Virus record (IMG/VR): IMGVR_UViG_2531839014_000003
Coordinates: 1-64,000 of that record
Source: a virus
Taxonomy: Duplodnaviria; Caudoviricetes
Length of the DNA stretch: 64,000 nucleotides
Direction: 5' to 3' (one strand)
Part shown: positions 1 to 57,450 of the stretch, one piece after another
Position numbering within the stretch: the stretch's first letter is position 1
How the letters are laid out: every line of letters begins with the position of its first letter
Program-made: the position numbers and the translations under genes
The notes under the pieces: generated by a model
The model's database searches: none
The model's input: the letters and a program-made list of their open reading frames with translations, nothing else
Told to the model about the DNA's origin: nothing

Positions 1-990
1 TTGAAAGACATCCGTCTTTTTACCTCTCAGCCTGTTGCCAAATTTTATGACTCGTTATTCCTCCGGCTTGATTTATCTTTTGTTCAGGAGCCATCCCTGG
101 AAGCGGGCCTGGATGAGGAAATTGCCTATACGAAGGAATTGCTTTCCGTCCTGGAGGAAGGGATTGCCGCCTGCGGGGACAAAAAGATACAGGACCTGGC
201 GGAAAGGATACGGGGATTATTAGATACGGATAAGATCCGGGAAATCAGATCAAAAGATGACGAAGATGCCCGGTTTGGGCACAAGACACCCACGAGTACA
301 TTTTATGGGTACAAGAACCATCTGGCAATGGCGGAGGAAAGGCTGATCGCGGGGATAAGCATAACGCCGGGAGGGGAACCTGACGGCCAGCAGTTGCCCG
401 GATTAATTGAAAAGGCCCAGAAAAACGGGATTGAAGTAACGGAAGTGATCGGGGACATGGCGTATGTCAGTGAGGACAACGTGGATGCTTGCGGGGAAAA
501 AATCACTTTAATAGCGAAAATAAATCCTGCGGCCGCGGCTGCTGCGGAAGCGAAACTTGAGGAAGGATTCAGTTTTAACAAAGATGCAAAGATGCTGCAA
601 TGTCCGGCAGGTGAACTGGCCATGCGGGTTGAGAAGCGGGAGGCAAAGAACGGGAACCAGTACCGGAATTACGTATTCAGCAAGAAAAAATGCGAAAAGT
701 GCCCTCTAAAAGGACAGTGTAAAGTAGGGAAGTGGAAAACCCACAGCTATAGTATTACCCAAGCAAGAGAAAAGAACCGGAGCAGGCTGGAATTTGAAGC
801 AAGCGAAGAATTTCAAGAACGCCTGAAGATACGGCACCGGATTGAAGAAAAGAATGGGGAATTAAAGGAAGCCCACGGATTAGGCAGAGCAGATTCAGTG
901 GGATTGTTTGCTATGGAATTGCAAATGAATTTTACGGCATTCGTAGCAAATATTAAGAGAATAACGAAGTTGATTGCACTGGCCGGATGA
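1..990 (+). CDS. IS1182-family DDE transposase, N-terminally incomplete or chimeric
   Basis: D-DARFGHK, FYGYKNHL, GDMAY, CPAG..C..CP..C zinc ribbon, RHRIEEKNGELK..HGL motifs. Confidence 0.85.
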   Translation: MKDIRLFTSQPVAKFYDSLFLRLDLSFVQEPSLEAGLDEEIAYTKELLSVLEEGIAACGDKKIQDLAERIRGLLDTDKIREIRSKDDEDARFGHKTPTSTFYGYKNHLAMAEERLIAGISITPGGEPDGQQLPGLIEKAQKNGIEVTEVIGDMAYVSEDNVDACGEKITLIAKINPAAAAAAEAKLEEGFSFNKDAKMLQCPAGELAMRVEKREAKNGNQYRNYVFSKKKCEKCPLKGQCKVGKWKTHSYSITQAREKNRSRLEFEASEEFQERLKIRHRIEEKNGELKEAHGLGRADSVGLFAMELQMNFTAFVANIKRITKLIALAG

Positions 991-1088
991 TAAAACAGCC
1001 CATATTTTTTAGTGAATCATAATCTCTGACACCATATTATAGAAGAAAGAAAAACTCCCACAAAAAACGGGAGTTTTTCAGTGCCCTC
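1..1088 (+). mobile_element. IS1182-family insertion sequence (right part); right end near 1088
   Basis: Transposase ORF 1..990 followed by hairpin AAAAACTCCC..GGGAGTTTTT and terminal TTTTTCAGTGCCCTC; GC content higher than the phage DNA. Confidence 0.75.
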
Positions 1089-1144
1089 ATAAAATAAGGA
1101 TTTCTCGACTCTCCTCGGGTTGGGCTATTCGTTAAAATAGTCAG

Positions 1145-1193
1145 CAGGGGAAGAGGGGCTCGAACCCCCATCTACGGTTTTGGAGACCGCTGC
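1145..1193 (-). pseudogene. 3' half of tRNA-Trp(CCA); prophage att core
   Basis: Minus strand GCAGCGGT-CTCCAAA-ACCGT-AGATG-GGGGTTCGAGCCCCTC-TTCCCCTG: anticodon arm, T arm and acceptor 3' strand, with no D arm or 5' strand. Confidence 0.85.
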
Positions 1194-1236
1194 AAAAGTC
1201 CAGATTATCCTTATTTTACTTACTTTTAGAAAAAGT

Positions 1237-1260
1237 GGGAACACTTTTGGGAACACTTTT
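1237..1260 (+). repeat. Tandem 12-bp direct repeat GGGAACACTTTT x2, probable integrase arm-type site
   Basis: Exact repeat about 45 bp inside the att core. Confidence 0.6.
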
Positions 1261-1448
1261 TATATTTTAAATTCCTTGTAAATATATGTATTTTCCCATT
1301 TCTTAAATGCATCAATCGGAATATAGTACTGTTTACCAATTTTTATTTTGGGAAATGACTTCTTCTTTATTATAGCATATGCCTTCTTCTCACTGCAATC
1401 TAATATTTTCTGTATGTCTTTCACTTTTAAGTATTTATCTACATTCAT
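1260..1448 (-). CDS. Excisionase / HTH_17 DNA-binding protein
   Basis: YLKVKDIQKILDCS..AYAII...FPKIKIGKQYYIP; GGAGGT SD before ATG at 1448; adjacent to att. Confidence 0.8.
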   Translation of the reverse strand: MNVDKYLKVKDIQKILDCSEKKAYAIIKKKSFPKIKIGKQYYIPIDAFKKWENTYIYKEFKI

Positions 1449-1515
1449 ACAATACCTCCAATACAATAGGGCCGGATTATATACCAGCCCAAAATAACCT
1501 CTTATATACACTCTT

Positions 1516-2151
1516 TCATCTTTTAATATAAACATCAGCCCAGTACACCCCCATCTCCAAAGCCTCCTGGTGTGTCTCTACAGCCATATCAATCTTGTGG
1601 CCCTTAATCATTCCCCCTGTGTCTTCTGCCTGGTACTCAACGCCATCTATAACAACCGTGCTGCCAAGAGGTATGACGCTTGGATCAACACTGATTAGTC
1701 CAGGATATACAGGTATTCCTGTCCGGGTAAGCCCTTTTCCATCGCCGCATATATGCTTATATGGTTCACAGCAATAGTGACTAATTTTAAATTGTCCAAT
1801 ATATTCAAGGGAAGTTTCTGTATCAGAAAGATACTCAGATTTGATATAGGCATAACCATCTTCTGTGGTAATCATGGACCATCCATCATATTCGCCAAAC
1901 ACTTCAAATGATGTATTCAGAAAGGTCTGACCAAGAACTATTGATTCAATATCAGGCTTCTCCCAGATGTTAACTCCATCTTTATTTGCATACATTGTCT
2001 TAGGTTCTAACGCCCCAATAAATGCTTCTTTCATTGTTTCTATCTGTGCCGTCATTGTAACGGTTTCTTTGTTTTCTTCTGCCCATGTCGCCATGGGCGT
2101 GACTAAGGATAGGAATAATACACTGATCCACATTATAGATAATTTCCTCAT
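1516..2151 (-). CDS. Secreted SH3 + 3D-domain cell-wall protein
   Basis: Signal peptide, SH3b-like segment, 3D motifs ISVDPSVIPLGS, AEDTGG.IKG.KIDM. Confidence 0.85.
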   Translation of the reverse strand: MRKLSIMWISVLFLSLVTPMATWAEENKETVTMTAQIETMKEAFIGALEPKTMYANKDGVNIWEKPDIESIVLGQTFLNTSFEVFGEYDGWSMITTEDGYAYIKSEYLSDTETSLEYIGQFKISHYCCEPYKHICGDGKGLTRTGIPVYPGLISVDPSVIPLGSTVVIDGVEYQAEDTGGMIKGHKIDMAVETHQEALEMGVYWADVYIKR

Positions 2152-4944: not shown

Positions 4945-7197
4945 CTAATTCTCTATTGCATGGTCATCTACATGAACATATCTATTCTGAAATTCATCCA
5001 ATCGTCCTTGATTCCAGCCATTTGTTGCAGTTCCAATATATCCACATGTTCGTCTTGCAACGTTCATTTTATTAGTATCCTCATTACCACAATTTGGGCA
5101 TCTCCAGCCAAGTTTTCCATCGATATCTAATAACTGGATTTCACCATCATATCCACATACTTGACAATAATCACTCTTTGTATTTAATTCAGCATACATA
5201 ATGTTGTTATAGATAAACTTAAGAATCTCCAACACAGCAGGAATATTATCTTGCATATTGCATGTTTCAATATATGAAATAGCACCTCCAGGACTTAACT
5301 TCTGAAATTTTGACTCAAGTCGTAATTTCTCAAACGGATCGATTTCTTCAAATACTGGAATATGATAAGAATTAGTGACATAATCTCTATCTGTAATTCC
5401 TTCTATTACACCAAAACGCTCCTGAAGTTTTTGCGCAAATTTATATGTAGTAGATTCCAATGGAGTTCCATAAACACTATAATCAATATTTTCATTCTCT
5501 TTCCAGTGGTTACATTTATCGTTTAGAGCTTGCATTACCGCAAGTCCGAAAGCTTCTCCTTCACCTTCATCACTATGACTCTTCCCAGTCATATACTTTA
5601 CACATTCATATAATCCGGCATATCCTAAGGAAATAGTTGAATAACCATTATATAAAAGATTATCTATAGTTTCACCTTTGTCTAATCGTGCTAATGCACC
5701 GTATCTCCAAAGAATAGGAGCAACATCTGAAGGTGTTCCTTTTAAGTGTTCGTGTCTAATACGAAGTGCTTTATGGCAAAGTTCTGTTCTTTCATCAAAT
5801 AGTTCCCAGAATTTATTGAAATCACCACTTGATGATAATGCTATGTCTGGTAGATTAATAGTTACTACCCCACAATTAAATCTACCATAATACTTATGCT
5901 TTCCTTCTTCATAGTTCTTCGCTTTTGCGATATTTCCAACACCTTTTTCTGTGAAACGGTCTGGAGTAAGAAAACTGCGACACCCCATTGGGGTATAAAT
6001 ATCCCCCTTTAATTCAAACATTACTTTTTCAGAAACATAATCTGGAACCATACGTTTAGCTGTGCATTTTGCAGCCAATTCAGTCAAATACCAATACTTA
6101 CTATCTTTCGAAATATTATCTTCCTCTAACACATAAATCAATTTAGGAAATGCAGGAGTAATCCATACACCTTGCTCATTTTTAACGCCTTGATAACGTT
6201 GCTTTAATGTTTCTTCGATCAACATCGCCAAGTCAGCTTTTTCCTGCTCATTCTTAGCTTCATTAAGGTACAAGAAAACAGTAAGAAATGGTGCCTGTCC
6301 ATTAGTTGTCATCAGTGTAACAACTTGATATTGAATAGTCTGAATTCCTTTCTTTATTTCATCTATCAAGCGTTCATTCGTAACCTTTTCTACATAATCT
6401 GAATAATTAATATAACTGCCAACTGCATTAGACTTAAGTAAGGTATCGATCTCTTGCTTTACTTTTTTTCTAATTTTCTGTCTACTAATATCAACAAATG
6501 GTGCTAAGTGTGCCAAAGAAATACTTTGGCCTCCATATTGTGACGAAGCAACCTGGGCAATAATCTGAGTGGCAATATTACATGCCGTGGAAAAGCTACG
6601 CGGTTTCTCAATTAATGTTTCACTGATGACTGTGCCATTCTGAAGCATATCTTCAAGATTGATGAGATCGCAATTATGAGTTTTCATAGCAAAATAATCC
6701 ATATCATGGAAATGCAAGATTGCATCTTCATGAGCCTGAACAAGCTCTGGCGGAAGTAAAAATCTCCTAGATATATCTTTACTTGCAATTCCTGCCATAT
6801 AGTCACGCTGCGTTGTAACCAATCTTGGATTCTTATTAGAATTCTCACTATTCCAATAGTCGTTAATGCCACCTAATAGTTCTTGAATTTCTTCATCGGT
6901 TGTATTAGACATTTCTCTCTGAAATTCTCTGGTCTTACGGTATCCTTCATACGCTTGGGCTGTAAGTACAGCATCTTTTTCGATTAGCTTCTGAAAAACT
7001 ATATTTTCAATATCATAAATACTAATCGTTTCTTCGTTACAGCAAGATTTCTCAATTTCATCTGCTATGGTATCTGCAATCTTCGGTTGGATTACACCAC
7101 CATTTTTCATTGCTTTCATGATTGCTCTTGATATTTTAGCTTTATCAAAATCCACCTCTGAACAATCTCTTTTTAAAACTTTTACCATTTTATCCAC
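4945..7197 (-). CDS. nrdD: Anaerobic (class III) ribonucleoside-triphosphate reductase
   Basis: N-terminal ATP cone, MGCRSFL, RRTCGY glycyl-radical motif, zinc CxxC pairs. Confidence 0.97.
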   Translation of the reverse strand: MDKMVKVLKRDCSEVDFDKAKISRAIMKAMKNGGVIQPKIADTIADEIEKSCCNEETISIYDIENIVFQKLIEKDAVLTAQAYEGYRKTREFQREMSNTTDEEIQELLGGINDYWNSENSNKNPRLVTTQRDYMAGIASKDISRRFLLPPELVQAHEDAILHFHDMDYFAMKTHNCDLINLEDMLQNGTVISETLIEKPRSFSTACNIATQIIAQVASSQYGGQSISLAHLAPFVDISRQKIRKKVKQEIDTLLKSNAVGSYINYSDYVEKVTNERLIDEIKKGIQTIQYQVVTLMTTNGQAPFLTVFLYLNEAKNEQEKADLAMLIEETLKQRYQGVKNEQGVWITPAFPKLIYVLEEDNISKDSKYWYLTELAAKCTAKRMVPDYVSEKVMFELKGDIYTPMGCRSFLTPDRFTEKGVGNIAKAKNYEEGKHKYYGRFNCGVVTINLPDIALSSSGDFNKFWELFDERTELCHKALRIRHEHLKGTPSDVAPILWRYGALARLDKGETIDNLLYNGYSTISLGYAGLYECVKYMTGKSHSDEGEGEAFGLAVMQALNDKCNHWKENENIDYSVYGTPLESTTYKFAQKLQERFGVIEGITDRDYVTNSYHIPVFEEIDPFEKLRLESKFQKLSPGGAISYIETCNMQDNIPAVLEILKFIYNNIMYAELNTKSDYCQVCGYDGEIQLLDIDGKLGWRCPNCGNEDTNKMNVARRTCGYIGTATNGWNQGRLDEFQNRYVHVDDHAIEN

Positions 7198-34837: not shown

Positions 34838-35536
34838 TTATCATGTAAGGTCATTACCGGCTTACCCTTACATATTTTATTTATACTCGGAAAACCTGCT
34901 TCAACCGAGTTGTTGGCTCATAGAACTTCATGTGTGAACAGTATTCCCTGGCATTCTGTTTCAGCTCAGCACAGTCAGAGTTTAATTTCTATGATTTAAT
35001 TGCCACCAATCAGTCTGACAAACCAATATTATGTCACATTAAATAGATGCTTAATTTTTAAATCTTCAAGTTCTCTCAAAACAATTCTATCGCCCACTGG
35101 CCAGAACCCTATACCATTTATTTCTCTAGTTTCGATGTTACAAAATATATCTAATGCTCCAACACTTATTTTGTAATCATAATTCATTTTAACAAAACCA
35201 AAGTTAGCAAGCTGTTCTATTTTTACCTCATCTTTTAATTTAACCATCCTTACCTTTCTTCGCAGGAAATCGAAGTTTCAACTTAAATTGAAATATACTC
35301 TACTTCATCATATCCTTCCTTTGCCAGCTCAATCCCATATCTTACCGCTCTAAGATAATCGTCTGCATCAAATAAATCTCTATTAATGGTTGCATCTTCT
35401 GGATATTCAGTTAAGTCGTATACACTAAAAAGCTCATCATCTGTTTCTGGATCGTAAACTGACTGTTCACGCATTCCCCAATCACTTTGTTTGTCTGCAA
35501 TTTCTAAAATTTTCTTCTTCATTCACATATTCTCCT

Positions 35537-38417: not shown

Positions 38418-39233
38418 TTATCCCTCTCCCACATAAACCAGCCTGTCAATATATTCTCTACCTTCATCTTTAAAAATCGGAATATTCATATCAATAATCC
38501 ACTCATTCTCAGATTTAGACGAATCACGTAACTGACATAATTCCGTAGAACCATTTGACTTAACTACAATTTTATTTTTTACAACACAATTCCCACGTTT
38601 CTGATATGTAGGTAGAGCGTTCCAGTTGATGCCTTTCTGTACCATAAGCATATCCTGAATCTCATTACATGATTTATTCTGTAATTCTTTATGAGAGAAA
38701 TTAGCCTGACCGACCATTTGAATTGAATTGCGACTAGCATCTAATTGCCGCCAATACAGGCAATTCGTAACTTCTTCTTTGGGAACGTTAAAGCAGCGCG
38801 CATCGAACATCGCCTTATCAAACTTTTTCATATATACTTCTGCATCTGAATCATATTCATATACGTTCTCTTTAAATATTTTATTAAAAGCCATCGTCGC
38901 TATACTCGCTGCTATGCTACACATTTTCTGCACTTCATAATCAAACCATGCTGAAGAAGTAAGTTTTTTATAATCCACAAGCACTAAAGTAATTTCATCA
39001 GACTGAGTATAGCCGAGTACACACCCCTGAATATTTTCACATAGATACTTTGTTGTATCCTGCATTGTTCTAATTAGAATCTCATCAAAAGGTCTTTTAA
39101 AACCTCTTGTAAAGGTATGAAAGCTGCGCCCATCTAACCTCACCAGTACAGGGCAACGTCTCATAAGTTTTGTTTTGGGAATCTGTTCGTAAAATGTTTT
39201 CATACGAACGCCTAAATCGTCTTTTACTGACAT
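38418..39233 (-). CDS. tRNA(His) guanylyltransferase Thg1-like protein
   Basis: RLDGRSFH.FT, YTQSDEI, FDAR, WRQ.DA.RN. Confidence 0.92.
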   Translation of the reverse strand: MSVKDDLGVRMKTFYEQIPKTKLMRRCPVLVRLDGRSFHTFTRGFKRPFDEILIRTMQDTTKYLCENIQGCVLGYTQSDEITLVLVDYKKLTSSAWFDYEVQKMCSIAASIATMAFNKIFKENVYEYDSDAEVYMKKFDKAMFDARCFNVPKEEVTNCLYWRQLDASRNSIQMVGQANFSHKELQNKSCNEIQDMLMVQKGINWNALPTYQKRGNCVVKNKIVVKSNGSTELCQLRDSSKSENEWIIDMNIPIFKDEGREYIDRLVYVGEG

Positions 39234-40428
39234 ATGTATATATCCTTTCCTATTTTAATTTTATCTCCGAAATTTAGTCCATATAGCCCATGACTCCATT
39301 CAACCCACGGCCTTTTACAATCTGCTTTGCAACTGACACTGGAATGTAATTTTCAAAACCCTCTCCCTCGCAGCGGAGCAATCCTTTGTATTTTCCGTAA
39401 TCCTCAAGTTGCTCCAAAACCATGTCAATATTATATGCACTTGAAGCAATCTGACGCTCAGCCAACCTTATCTGGTCTTTATTCAGCCAGGTAATCCACT
39501 TACCGCAATCACCGCAATACAATCCTGTGTTACTATCAGATTTCTCAATAAAAATGTCCTTACTATGACATTTACTACATTCAAATTCTTTCATCTATTT
39601 ATCATGCCTCCCTTGAAATTCCAAAGCTATCCCTATATACTTTTCCATTTTTATATCAATATTAGATGGATACTGTTTAATATCTCCAACTAATTCTGTT
39701 GAAAAAGATATTTTAGTTATTATGTTATTATTGTCCACTTCAATATTTCCAGTAGTTCTTCCAGGAACACGAATTGCTAAGGTTTTATCCCATAAATCTC
39801 TTGCATCGTAAATGTAATGCTTATATCTGGGATTACTAACCGTATAACCACACACATCATCAAGTTTTCTTGTAAGATCGCAATAATATTCTTTATTATT
39901 CTTATTATATTTTTTCTCTAACTTCATTTTAAATACTCCGAAAGTCGCATTTTATCTGTTACCATATTCCATATTGAATTTTCATCCATAACCCATTGTC
40001 TACAGTAATTTCATAGGGCTTATAGTCATTCTCTTTAAATTCAAATTGATAACCATATTTTAGGATCTCAATACAATTCGCAATTTGTCTGTGTTTTTCT
40101 TCCTCAGTGTATGTATTACTACTAAAAGTTAACCACTCATACTTATCAATCTCTTTCTGTATATCCGTTTTATTTCCACAGAATTTTCCCTTTTCTCCTA
40201 ATACTGTTGAGAATTCTAATGTAAATATATTAGATGATGAAAAATCATGTTCACCCTCTTCTACAGTTGCCCAATAGCCACAAGAGAAACATTGAATTTT
40301 AATTATTGTTTTATTTGTTGAGATATTATGCCCTTCAAAGCGTTTCATATAATCTCTTCTGCAATTAGGACACCTTATTTTGCTCAATCTACCTCACCCT
40401 CCTATTCCCTTGAAATTCACGTTTCCTA

Positions 40429-43308: not shown

Positions 43309-43984
43309 TATGTATATCTCCTCTCCGTTTAGCTCAAATCCAATTCATGATGCCATTCCAATGTTATAATCAATATATCAATATCATCATCGTTTAATAG
43401 TTCAAGCTTATTTTCACCACATTTCCCTACGTATGTACCATACTTGTGACGCAAACATTCTAATAAATATTTTTTTACTTCAGGTAATTCTTGTTTCTTC
43501 ATGGCGGCCTCCTATTACACAACCTGAAACCAAGATTTTCTCCTATTTTTGTGGCATGTCATATATTCTTTATAAATTCATAATCATTACAATTCCAAAA
43601 ACTATTATTCCAACGCAGTATACAACTGCCTCAGGCCAACTCATTTATATAATCACCTCACTCCACTTCTATATCTAACGGTACCCCTCGTCTCCAGCTC
43701 AGTTTAATCTCACCGCTTTGTAATTTCTTCAATTGTTCCTGACATTGTTCGTCAGTATCATAGCCAGAGCAAAATACCCTATCATCTGGCGCTCTCCATT
43801 TATCTTTTAAATCAATGATGAAATACAAAACAGTGTGCTTAAGGTTAAACGGCTTCGTACAAATTATGTATCTATTGTCTCTGGCCTTGACCGTATATGG
43901 CCGTTTGTCTGTAGGAATATAAATTTTGTCTTCTACTTCAACTCTCATTTTTAACACCTCACGAATCCAAAGTTTCCTTCCAGC

Positions 43985-44380
43985 TTAGTAATTGACCACA
44001 TACACATCTAACCCATATCTCTTAGCTAAATCAATCATATGTTTAGTTCCTCGACTCTTACCATCCCAGAACGCAATCAGAATACCAATGTTCCCCTCTT
44101 CAGAAGCAAACTTTGCCATATCGGCATTTCTCCTGTAACCAGCACTCTTTCCATAGATATCCCATGCAGCGGGAAATCTTGACACATCATAATGTGCTAT
44201 CTGTGCATATTGTTCACCCAGTTTGTCAGCTCCTCTTGCACTCCCACTAACAATCCGTATTTTATCTATAGTATTATCTTCTTTTGTTACTGTTGCAATA
44301 ATTCCAATGCACTTATTCATTAGTAATGGGAAATCATTAAAATCTCTCCCACCAGCCACAATAATCCTTAACTCTTTCAT
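43985..44380 (-). CDS. DUF2493 / SLOG-family protein
   Basis: IIVAGGRDF, SGSARGAD, AGYRRN..M, AFWDGKSRGT. Confidence 0.8.
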   Translation of the reverse strand: MKELRIIVAGGRDFNDFPLLMNKCIGIIATVTKEDNTIDKIRIVSGSARGADKLGEQYAQIAHYDVSRFPAAWDIYGKSAGYRRNADMAKFASEEGNIGILIAFWDGKSRGTKHMIDLAKRYGLDVYVVNY

Positions 44381-44423
44381 TACTCCTCCCATCATCGCTG
44401 AAAACTCGACTTTCATCTTTTTA

Positions 44424-44537
44424 TGTGGGCGGCAGGACTCGAACCTGCTCTTACTCTGTGTCGGCTACTCCCGATTTACAAGACTTGCACTTGATTGGTT
44501 CTATCGAACTAACGCCAGCTTATGCAAATGCACCCAC
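44424..44537 (-). ncRNA. tRNA-like RNA with canonical acceptor stem and T arm but non-tRNA interior
   Basis: GTGGGTG/CGCCCAC-A, GCAGG-TTCGAGT-CCTGC; 114 nt. Confidence 0.6.
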
Positions 44538-44996
44538 GTTTACACAATTCTTACGAAACCGAAATTTCAGCCTATATCAGAATTCTAACTGTACTAAAAT
44601 CCGAATCTTTAAAGGTTTTATTCCTATACTGAGCCAAACACATCCTATTACTATATAACCCGACAGTAAAAGTTTGTTCATCTTTTAACTTTGAAACGAT
44701 GTTAATATATAAATTTGGATAGAAAGGTTTATCATTTTCTTTGCACCATGCCAATACCTCATATACATTTTCGTCTTCTAAAAACTCGTCTGCTACCACG
44801 TCACCATTGGCGTCTTCACCCTCAACGATTTCAAAATACCTTTCAAATTCATCGTATGACATACACCCTAAATGAACACCCTCACCAAATTTAAAACTAA
44901 TAATGCCATCTTCTGAAATGTCAACTATATCGCACACCTCACCAACATTTGTGAATGCTCCCATAGGTTTTACTAATTTAATTTTATCTTCCTTAG

Positions 44997-46130
44997 TCAT
45001 GTTGCTACCTCTTCTTTCTTGTTTGAAAATTTCTTGTTCCAATTATCAATCACCTTTTGTTCTTCATCCGTCACATCGTCATTAAATCTTCGTTTTGCTT
45101 GCACAATTCTATCGTTTCTAATTTCTATCGTTACAAGGCTTTCATCTGGAGCGGATTTCTTTCTTAAAAACATAATATGACATTTTCCATCAATAACCTT
45201 ATCGATGTACGATGATACGCAATTATTTTGCTGTACAGATTCATCCTTAATATCCTGTATATTTTCTGGATAAATGAATTGATAATCCCCAAAAGTACAT
45301 TCGTACTTTTTCATAATTCTCTTTTTAAAAAGATCTTCTGAAAATTCTTTTTTCATTCTGTTGTAATTTCTACAAGCAATCTTATGAGTCGTAAGAAAAT
45401 GACGAGGATATTTATCAAATTTATCGCTGATAGTGTTCATCATTTTTGCGTAATCATATAATTCTTTGATAAGATACCCCATATCCTCCATAGCTTCATA
45501 AGTTTTAAGTTGATCAGCATATAAGAACAATGCTTTCGCAGTATATCCAAAATTATTTATAAGTAAATCAAAATATGTATAACAATCATAACTTAATGTT
45601 TCTCTATTATATTCCGACTCATCTCTTGTCCATAATTTATAAATATCTCTATCATCTAAGCTCATATATTCAAGATGGTATCCTAAAATAATAGCATTTG
45701 GATTTTTCTTATAATATTCCAAGATACTATTTGACAACTGGATTGCATGCGTTCTACATAATTTAATTAACGCTTTAGGAATATCATTTATTTTATACTT
45801 AAAATTTCTTCCGCTACACAAAATATCATCAATCCCAGCAGAAAATAACTGTTCGTAATTTTCATATCGTTGGACTCTATCAAGAATTGTTCCTATATTT
45901 TCTATAGGATAAGGCTCTTGTCTCTGAACAAAAGCTAAGAATTTAGCATATTTTTGATCATCACAACAAGCAAATAAATTCTCGATTGATAGTCCTCTTA
46001 ATTGTCCACACAGTTTCCCTACTGGCTTACCCTTAATTCCAATTGCAGTTTTAGTAGCAAAATCATATTTTGCAGTTCTTCCATCTTCAAAGTCAAAGAT
46101 GAGATATTGTTTCTCTTTATAAACCCTCGT
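44997..46130 (-). CDS. PcfJ-like domain protein with probable ACG start
   Basis: DYAKM, E...Q.NCV.SY, I.FLR, TIEI...IVQ; frame open to ACG at 46130 behind AAGGAGGT. Confidence 0.75.
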   Translation of the reverse strand, partial: TRVYKEKQYLIFDFEDGRTAKYDFATKTAIGIKGKPVGKLCGQLRGLSIENLFACCDDQKYAKFLAFVQRQEPYPIENIGTILDRVQRYENYEQLFSAGIDDILCSGRNFKYKINDIPKALIKLCRTHAIQLSNSILEYYKKNPNAIILGYHLEYMSLDDRDIYKLWTRDESEYNRETLSYDCYTYFDLLINNFGYTAKALFLYADQLKTYEAMEDMGYLIKELYDYAKMMNTISDKFDKYPRHFLTTHKIACRNYNRMKKEFSEDLFKKRIMKKYECTFGDYQFIYPENIQDIKDESVQQNNCVSSYIDKVIDGKCHIMFLRKKSAPDESLVTIEIRNDRIVQAKRRFNDDVTDEEQKVIDNWNKKFSNKKEEVAT

Positions 46131-56088: not shown

Positions 56089-57450
56089 CTATTCCTCAAT
56101 CCAACCGTCTGTAATTCCAGTCATATAATAAATCAAATCTTCTTTTGTATTATTTAATTCTCCGTCTATGACTTTATTTAGAATTACGTTTAACCAATAA
56201 CCGATATCTTTTCCTTCTTTTATCATCATTGTTTTCTTGACATCATTACCATTAATGACTAAATCTTTCAATGAAAAACATGGTTTCTCTGATAATACTT
56301 CTTCTAATAATGCTTTAATATCAAATACTTTCTGTAATCTTCCATTCTCGTAATCAGGATTTTGACCTTTAATATCTGCTTTTCGTACTTGAAGAAGTCT
56401 TCTAAACTGCAATTCTCCTATCTTATTTAACCATCTCTTGATATACTTTTTGCCAACTTCAAAAGTAGCGTCATGATAATAAATCAGTTCTACAACAGAA
56501 TTTCTAGTATCATTGTCAAATCTCATACGTTTCATAATTTCATCTGTCATATCCGCACTAACTCTACCATGACCTTTGAAATGCCTTGTTCCATCTTCAT
56601 CGTCTTGATATGAATGTGGTTTACCAATATCGTGAAATAATACAGCTAATTTTATAATTAACTCTTCATCTTCACAGTTCTCAATCGCATGAATTGTATG
56701 TTCCCACACATTGTAATTATGATATGGATTGTTCTGTTTAAACTCAAACATATCTTTTAACTCTGGAATAAATAATGCAAATACTTCATTATATAAAACC
56801 ATCTGTACACAAAAACTATTTGAAGATACTATTTTGCAGAACTCGTTATTGATTCTTTCAATAGATATATTCTCTAAATTTTTATATTGTTTATGAATTT
56901 CCCAATCTGTATCAGGCATCATTACAAAATCAAGTTGAGAAGCAAATCGAATTGCTCTAAGTATTCTTAGAGCATCTTCCGAAAATCTATCTTTTGCAGA
57001 ACCAACACAATTTATCTTGTTATATTTAATATCTTCCATTCCACCAAAAGGGTCAATCAAACCAGCTTCGTCATTATAAGCCATTGCATTGATTGTAAAA
57101 TCCCTGCGCTTCAAATCTTCAATGAGATTATCTGTAAAAGTTACGATATCTGGTCTTCTATGATCAGAATAATCTCCATCCAGTCGATAGGTTGTAATTT
57201 CATATGGTTCGCCATTCGCAACAACTGTAATTGTTCCGTGTTGCAATCCAGTTTCAATTACCTTCTTATTTTTAAAAATGTCTAACATCTCCGAAGGAGT
57301 TGCTGACGTACAAATATCCCAATCACTAGGTGCTCTACCTAAAATACTATCTCTAACACAGCCTCCGACTACATATGCCTCATAGCCATGTTCTTGTAAA
57401 ATATGAATCAAATCATATGCATCTTGCGGTATGCTTATTTTAAAATTCAC
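56089..57450 (-). CDS. cca: CCA-adding tRNA nucleotidyltransferase with HD domain
   Basis: VGGCVRD, DWDI, RRDFTINA, EDALRILRA, ERI, HDIGK. Confidence 0.92.
   Translation of the reverse strand: MNFKISIPQDAYDLIHILQEHGYEAYVVGGCVRDSILGRAPSDWDICTSATPSEMLDIFKNKKVIETGLQHGTITVVANGEPYEITTYRLDGDYSDHRRPDIVTFTDNLIEDLKRRDFTINAMAYNDEAGLIDPFGGMEDIKYNKINCVGSAKDRFSEDALRILRAIRFASQLDFVMMPDTDWEIHKQYKNLENISIERINNEFCKIVSSNSFCVQMVLYNEVFALFIPELKDMFEFKQNNPYHNYNVWEHTIHAIENCEDEELIIKLAVLFHDIGKPHSYQDDEDGTRHFKGHGRVSADMTDEIMKRMRFDNDTRNSVVELIYYHDATFEVGKKYIKRWLNKIGELQFRRLLQVRKADIKGQNPDYENGRLQKVFDIKALLEEVLSEKPCFSLKDLVINGNDVKKTMMIKEGKDIGYWLNVILNKVIDGELNNTKEDLIYYMTGITDGWIEE

Follow-up and report, generated by a model that had tools for sequence, protein, structure and literature searches.

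The window analysed here is a 64,000-nt stretch taken from the 165-kb record of a phage. On its minus strand, a tRNA-like unit of 114 nt occupies most of the 188-nt gap that runs from a 156-aa gene (44572-45042) to a gene of the SLOG/YAcAr family (43985-44383). The neighbouring genes all lie on the minus strand, the same strand as the unit. Positions within the element (p) correspond to window coordinates 44538-p, and the element therefore runs 44537→44424. The features of the locus are as follows.

44572..45042, minus: upstream gene of 156 aa, unknown function (open reading frame)
44555..44568, minus: junction hairpin J1, GAAAUUUCGGUUUC, just past the stop codon of the upstream gene
44424..44537, minus: tRNA-like unit, 114 nt (fold and shuffle test; ARAGORN and Rfam silent)
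44531..44537, minus: 5' strand of the acceptor, GUGGGUG (partner at 44425-44431)
44474..44529, minus: possible nested mini tRNA-shaped module, element 9-64 (suggested by the layout)
44494..44513, minus: hairpin GUU-A-GUUC-GAUA-GAAC-C-AAU, inside the oversized module at the D position (MFE and centroid folds)
44479..44493, minus: hallmark hairpin CAAG-UGCAAGU-CUUG, element 45-59 (sequence comparison)
44461..44474, minus: hairpin UCGG-GAGUAG-CCGA at the anticodon-arm position (6-nt loop, no U33)
44432..44448, minus: perfect canonical T arm GCAGG-UUCGAGU-CCUGC (G53-C61 closing pair present)
44424..44431, minus: 3' strand of the acceptor, CGCCCAC, with discriminator A at 44424 (sequence)
44400..44414, minus: junction hairpin J2, GAAAGUCGAGUUUUC, ~16 nt ahead of the SLOG start codon
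43985..44383, minus: downstream gene of 132 aa, SLOG/YAcAr family (PF10686, 9.7e-10; phrog_289, 1e-30)

The acceptor stem GUGGGUG/CGCCCAC contains 7 bp (six Watson-Crick pairs and one G.U), and its 3' strand is directly abutted by the T arm. CCA is not encoded; UAA comes right after the discriminator A. An earlier sequence-only reading had described a 114-nt tRNA-like unit with a 7-bp acceptor, a discriminator A and a perfect T arm, and this description is confirmed, on the minus strand at 44537..44424. Between the two halves of the acceptor, position 8 is C instead of U8, and the D position is taken up by a module of 47-56 nt that retains a D-loop-like AGCUGG. The hallmark hairpin has a T-loop-like loop with U55 changed to G, a 13-nt core (AAG-UGCAAGU-CUU) and a stem of 4 bp, the fifth pair being U.U. 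With a loop of 6 nt and no U33, UCGG-GAGUAG-CCGA is unable to serve as an anticodon loop.

The unit had been thought to hold no credible reading frame, and our results agree: no minus-strand ORF of at least 20 aa was found inside it, and the plus-strand ORFs at this position are antisense to the entire gene array and have no PHROG match. Local GC content is 44-47% at the unit versus 34% across the genome. The likely start of the SLOG gene is the ATG at 44383, which is preceded by GGGAGGAG.

Junction hairpins and cassette swapping

Junction sites had been placed at 44400 and 44554 by the sequence-only reading. Both proved to be real small hairpins (44400-44414 and 44555-44568) that conform to the motif GAAAnUUCGrUUUC, and J1 and J2 are true swap boundaries. 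Related phage contigs of ~156 kb retain both hairpins with other contents, one holding a single ORF (L005) and another holding two (L009), between or after them. In contig X17, exactly 44413-44552 is swapped for 257 other bases. In metagenome contig L062, the stretch from J1 through the RNA to J2 is letter-for-letter identical to that of the window, and divergence sets in from 44401 onward. The different contents found between the same two hairpins in L005, L009 and X17 support the idea that the unit is a cassette, as had been proposed.

In strains X12 and X14 the unit is unchanged, and the nine SNPs that distinguish them all fall within upstream genes. The copies found (X12, X14 and L062) are 100% identical in the unit, with flank divergence too low for this identity to show purifying selection. 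No promoter-like or terminator-like sites flank the unit. Folding of 192 nt produced a long-range pairing between J1 and J2, which arises because both hairpins are near-palindromic; it is absent from L005 and L009 and was set aside.

The GAAAnUUCGrUUUC hairpin recurs beyond this locus. Minus-strand matches in the window lie at 35279, 37677, 44414, 44568 and 62791, with a plus-strand match at 39940; further copies occur at genome positions 79761 and 91123 and in relatives L005, L009, L048, L050 and L062. These recurrent hairpins, at which entire cassettes are exchanged, are situated right after stop codons and 10-20 nt 5' of ribosome-binding sites.

The closest published analogue of the cassette is the PeSL of T4-type phages, an intergenic motif that includes an early promoter and a terminator stem-loop (Arbiol et al. 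2010, PMC2839356; Comeau et al. 2014, PMC4122927). In both cases, short repeated intergenic motifs flank small variable genes and close phages differ by replacement of whole cassettes. Unlike PeSL, the junction described here is merely a 14-15-nt AU-rich hairpin with a UUCG-type loop, at which no sigma-70-like promoter or terminator was found.

Fold, decoding ability and homologues of the unit

The strict definition of a tRNA top half used here comprised a T stem with at least 4 GC pairs, a G-C closing pair, a UUCRANN loop and an abutting 7-bp acceptor with at least 5 GC pairs. When the 165-kb genome was shuffled 1000 times with dinucleotides preserved, such a structure never appeared, by criteria that were set after the element had been seen. 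With looser criteria (a T arm and an abutting 7-bp acceptor), 0.145 are expected per shuffled genome. In the MFE fold, the 114 nt form a cloverleaf-like four-way junction in which every helix is intact (-35.0 kcal/mol, z = -2.07).

Two pairings, UUUGCA/UGCAAG and UCGG-GAGUAG-CCGA, both occur within the MFE fold. The second had been assigned to the anticodon position and is present as described. The first belongs to a long stem-loop (ATTTGCA..TGCAAGT) that was said to replace the D arm; the pairing itself stands, but AGCUGG is kept and the stem uses the loop of the hallmark hairpin, so that two folds compete. In the nested fold, a stem formed by AUUUGC (element 9-14) and GUAAAU encloses AGCUGG, a hairpin and then the hallmark hairpin. 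Fold energies are -26.7 kcal/mol for the nested-module fold, -30.9 for the fold of the sequence-only reading and -35.0 for the MFE fold, which places the nested form 4-8 kcal/mol behind (4 relative to the former and 8 relative to the MFE). The nested-module fold is a possible one, suggested by homology of layout and not by energy. Removal of the inner module from the unit gives a 58-nt D-armless minihelix, not a tRNA.

ARAGORN identified four ordinary tRNAs in the 165-kb record, and the unit was not among them. A search of the unit against Rfam 15 gave no match, and no tRNA even at E<=10; chance matches to sn2991 and U6 lay beside the unit only. ARAGORN runs on the unit in default, intron (-i), mitochondrial and tmRNA modes produced no credible call, and relaxed settings yielded low-scoring calls only. 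When 1817 single deletions of the unit were scanned, five low-value tRNA calls resulted, all on an alternative acceptor and none on the outer acceptor, and in these scans no anticodon arm (5-bp stem, 7-nt loop and U33) was found on the outer acceptor. Neither removal of the extra hairpin nor any of the 1817 deletions restored a tRNA on the outer acceptor, and the unit is therefore not an ordinary tRNA with one insertion; here too the sequence-only reading, which took the unit for something other than such a tRNA, was borne out, with Rfam and ARAGORN both silent.

That the unit might nevertheless be a decoding tRNA of unusual shape, or one with an intron, is very improbable. The relaxed ARAGORN calls can be cited in its favour, as they use an alternative acceptor of 5/7 bp and read the hallmark loop as a CAA anticodon, but such calls require that 19-26 nt be deleted or that thresholds be lowered to 80-90%, and the hallmark loop has G at position 33. 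A 5-bp stem with a 7-nt loop and U33 is present nowhere in the unit, and the Rfam tRNA model is silent. This explanation is already close to refuted, and the unit stands apart both from decoding tRNAs and from ordinary tRNAs that carry one insertion.

The top half of the unit clearly descends from a tRNA. A canonical tRNA (RF00005) shares with it the 7-bp acceptor, the discriminator A, the 5-bp T stem with its UUCGAGU loop, and AGCUGG; in having no encoded CCA, the unit is the same as the phage's own four canonical tRNAs. Canonical tRNAs differ in having an anticodon arm, U8 and a normal D arm, and in being detected by ARAGORN and Rfam. The tRNA-like domain of tmRNA and that of YrlA are similar to the unit, from which an anticodon is absent, in their acceptor stem and T arm. 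However, tmRNA carries a tag ORF, whereas the unit amounts to 114 nt only and ARAGORN -m finds no tmRNA, and YrlA is distinguished by an Rfam match and a Ro partner, both of which are missing here.

BLAST of the unit against 50,697 phage records returned T-arm matches only. The exact inner pattern had 0 loci in IMG/VR and 0 in GTDB genomes, and in metagenomes it was represented by one identical copy, that of L062. A single-sequence covariance model of the unit found nothing in 10 related phage records; applied to the collected loci, it retrieved mostly ordinary tRNAs, the top match being an odd tRNA-like gene in L004. Ten related phages of ~150 kb lack the unit, which is therefore dispensable. 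Matches to a 25-mer that covers the T arm and acceptor were confined to three unrelated viral contigs and two archaeal MAGs, in which they are att-like repeats, and no host parent tRNA was identified by this search. An origin as an att site or duplicate was rejected, since a search of the 165-kb genome that allowed <=3 mismatches gave no second copy of any part of the unit.

Several tRNA-related loci were encountered during these searches. The odd tRNA of L004 (878-964, minus strand, on an unrelated 29-kb viral contig) is 87-89 nt long; its acceptor 3' strand and T arm are identical to those of the unit, its D arm is normal, and its anticodon position is taken by a 9-bp stem with a 12-nt loop. 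Two Methanosarcinales MAGs (L063 and L064) have the same 25-nt tRNA 3' end, consisting of T arm, acceptor strand and A, and in L063 the last bases of this end recur ~70 nt upstream, in the manner of an integration scar. The window itself contains, at ~1145-1200 on the minus strand, the 3' two-thirds of a tRNA-Trp(CCA) with the anticodon arm GCGGU-CUCCAAA-ACCGU, the T arm GGGGG-UUCGAGC-CCCUC and an acceptor 3' strand, and with no 5' acceptor strand. GC content climbs to 42% over window positions 1-2000. The fragment is probably the att site of the prophage in a host tRNA-Trp gene.

Two other kinds of small tRNA-like elements were seen in intergenic regions of phage contigs, both of them missed by ARAGORN and Rfam. 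The first is a D-armless tRNA-like minihelix of ~67 nt with little variation, carried by 150-177-kb phage contigs of another lineage (L010:378-445, L011, L065, L069, L071-L073 and L077); it has the acceptor GUGUAGA/CCUACAC, an 8-bp hairpin with a GGAGAA loop, the T arm UAGGG-UUCGAUU-CCCUA and a discriminator A. The second is a 69-nt mini tRNA-like unit ending in ACCA, located at the 3' end of a conserved, GC-rich, structured region of ~230 nt in small phage contigs (L053, L055 and L057-L061; for example L053 ~5028-5113, minus strand). A GG-GAGUAG-CC hairpin beside the T arm is common to the L053-type units and the 114-nt unit. This likeness of the GAGUAG loops may be chance and serves as a lead only, as it comes from a pattern search in which a few chance matches are expected.

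Comparison with tRNA-shaped introns

Element 41-59 of the unit matches, at 19 of 20 positions, the variable-loop/T-arm region of the insert in L078, a phage tRNA-Gln gene whose tRNA-shaped insert is 122 nt long (the score is 33, against 25 for the best of 2000 shuffles). In addition, the T arm of the unit together with the next base is identical at 18/18 positions to the T arm in exon 2 of the L078/L084 tRNA, which has an intron. The gap from the 19/20-match region to this identical 18-mer is 25 nt in L078 and 30 nt in the unit.

IMG/VR was searched for the 13-nt core followed within 16-46 nt by the T-loop pattern GGUUCGANUCC, and 12 loci were recovered, with chance matches estimated at ~0.1. 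Eleven of these are tRNA genes with introns of 37-737 nt according to ARAGORN -i, and the twelfth is truncated by the end of the locus. Among the seven distinct sequences of this class, the 13 nt are invariant and the two outer stem pairs covary (0.40 vs 0.167 shuffled, 0/500). Covariation among homologues, which had been put forward as a check on the unit, was thus obtained for the two outer pairs of the hallmark hairpin in the intron class; all copies of the unit being identical, they offer no such test for the whole fold. In L078, L079 and L088, a 7-nt strand complementary to the first bases of the insert comes straight after the hallmark hairpin, and N-CCA comes next. The equivalent of this strand in the unit could form 5-6 bp (AUUUGC/GUAAAU), the stem of the nested fold.

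Within the 165-kb genome the 13-mer core has a single occurrence, and it is absent from ten related phages at <=1 mismatch. BLAST of the hallmark region against cultured phages gave chance-level matches only. The phages that carry the intron class are not close kin of the present phage, no RtcB or Rnl2-type ligase gene was found in its genome, and its own four tRNAs are intron-free. Together, these three observations fit acquisition of the unit as a cassette.

To our knowledge, tRNA-shaped inserts in phage tRNA genes have barely been described, and their removal and spread have never been demonstrated. The closest known system is that of the tRNA-shaped ('enigmatic') introns of Lak megaphages (Devoto et al. 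2019, PMC6784885). The unit has in common with such introns the invariant 13-nt hairpin AAG-UGCAAGU-CUU and a canonical T arm 16-46 nt downstream; the strand after the hairpin could likewise fold back onto the 5' part of a possible small tRNA-shaped module. It differs in that it lies outside a tRNA gene, is flanked by J1 and J2, and has 'exons' that make no tRNA. The N-CCA end is missing from both the inner module (next bases CGGGAG) and the outer unit (A, UAA), the inner stems stack 9 bp (4 + 5-6) as opposed to 12 (5 + 7), and the module occupies the D-arm position, not the anticodon. The presence of the invariant hallmark hairpin points to descent from, or kinship with, mobile inserts and not to a purpose-built mimic. 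The unit is most likely a free-standing relative or relic of phage tRNA-shaped introns.

Two further loci illustrate the range of these inserts. A 111-nt tRNA-Trp-like gene in L089 (around 816-873, minus strand) has one 5' acceptor strand, AUGGGAG, and two alternative 3' halves, UUCCUAU after a hallmark UGCAAGU hairpin and CUCCUAU after a canonical T arm. In L088 (1601-2413), a tRNA-Gln(UUG) contains a 737-nt tRNA-shaped insert that starts with GGUAGAA, finishes with UUUUACC-A-CCA and includes the hallmark T arm. This insert bears an HNH-type reading frame (HH...CANCH, read from the sequence) with in-frame TAG codons, which suggests either a TAG-recoded phage or a broken gene.

Proposed processing and alternative explanations

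Our best reading, to which we give about an even chance, is that the unit may be an RNA cassette that derives from a tRNA but cannot decode; it would be transcribed along with its neighbours, and RNase P and RNase Z would probably trim it before a CCA tail is added. Its intact top half encloses an oversized module with the hallmark hairpin and, at the anticodon position, a short hairpin with a 6-nt loop. The unit would be related to, or derived from, a locus of the type 'tRNA plus tRNA-shaped insert', but free-standing, and would have landed as a cassette in a hyperplastic stretch of the prophage. We infer that it is transcribed and processed and that it may benefit the phage. Given that no promoter or terminator lies beside it, transcription is expected together with the neighbouring minus-strand genes; among RNA-library contigs, X19 covers 43822-43991 only and X17 is the variant that lacks the unit. 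For RNase P, RNase Z and CCA-adding enzymes, the acceptor/T-arm minihelix is the substrate shape that is recognised, and in the unit this stack amounts to 12 bp with a canonical T loop. RNase P would cut at the 5' end before G1, and RNase Z would cut at the 3' end after A73, because no CCA is encoded. A CCA-adding enzyme encoded by the phage would then tail the RNA to give a stable product of ~117 nt. Genes for a CCA-adding enzyme (56089-57450), a Thg1-like protein (38418-39233), RlaP and a phosphoesterase are present in the phage. As a side effect, excision would separate the upstream and downstream mRNAs. In plant mitochondria, non-decoding t-elements are cut by RNase P and RNase Z and thereby define mRNA ends (Forner et al. 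2007, PMC1920247). Together with mascRNA-type signals, they resemble the unit as non-decoding tRNA-like structures between genes in a longer transcript, and we propose them as a working analogy, although kingdom and origin are unrelated. Against a processed RNA cassette stand the folding z-score of only -2.07, the nested-module fold at 4-8 kcal/mol above the MFE, the lack of a diverged homologue and the absence of the unit from 10 relatives.

The departures from tRNA constraints, C8 and the 6-nt 'anticodon' loop, fit decay as well as repurposing, and the unit could instead be a dead relic without a selected RNA product that is carried along as a cassette. Deletion or recombination would have stripped the D and anticodon arms from a phage tRNA gene with an intron, or from a tRNA-shaped insert, and left the present remains. 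We consider this a tentative alternative. The missing CCA end, the failure of any single deletion to restore a tRNA, the inner-module stems shortened to 4 + 5-6 bp (5 + 7 in the class) and the lack of an RtcB/Rnl2-type ligase that could splice all speak for it, as do the absence of the unit from 10 relatives and the unrelated ORFs that fill the slot elsewhere; identity among copies would then follow from their being recent. However, random decay should strike stems as often as loops, yet pairing is complete in all five helices and the T loop keeps its canonical form. High local GC content has also been retained within a 34%-GC genome, and in at least three phage backgrounds recombination exactly at the borders of the unit has left it intact.

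Explanations that would give the RNA an active role of its own are less probable. It is unlikely that the unit is an exon-less, free-living member of the intron family, in which case it would be a resting or progenitor form of a mobile RNA, its 13-nt hairpin, unchanged among unrelated phages, would be recognised by a dedicated enzyme responsible for cutting, joining or mobilising such elements, and the RNA would be no fossil but active, for example as a decoy or guide for this enzyme. A decoy or sponge is doubtful as well. Here the CCA-tailed top half would titrate host enzymes or toxins whose targets are the acceptor ends or elbows of tRNAs, or would be a dedicated substrate of the phage CCA-adding or Thg1-like enzymes. 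The minihelix is intact while the decoding parts are missing, and the phage carries the CCA-adding enzyme, RlaP, phosphoesterase and Thg1-like genes, all of which would suit such a role. On the other hand, the unit has no anticodon-like loop and so cannot mimic the targets of anticodon nucleases, the repair genes lie 6-12 kb away and are unlinked, and the unit is missing from relatives that keep the neighbourhood. The sequence-only reading had also suggested a Y-RNA-like molecule, and a Y-RNA/YrlA-like RNA that works with a Ro (Rsr) protein has a general resemblance to recommend it, YrlA RNAs having a tRNA-like domain. This suggestion did not hold up and is highly improbable: there is no Rfam match to Y_RNA or YrlA, no TROVE/Ro or RtcB gene was found in the phage, and the ends of the unit form an acceptor stem instead of a Ro-binding helix.

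The feature is real, and a free-standing form of this barely described kind of element is new. Because this copy lies outside any tRNA gene and the prophage is present in isolate-sized assemblies of organisms A-E, it could be tractable. The unit could show whether the top-half shape alone suffices for processing by RNase P, RNase Z and the CCA-adding enzyme in vivo, whether the UGCAAGU hairpin binds a specific factor, and whether such elements move as cassettes. For this phage group, the short intergenic hairpins provide concrete marks of recombination boundaries. Even if the unit is a silent relic, it still records a route by which tRNA-shaped inserts decay.
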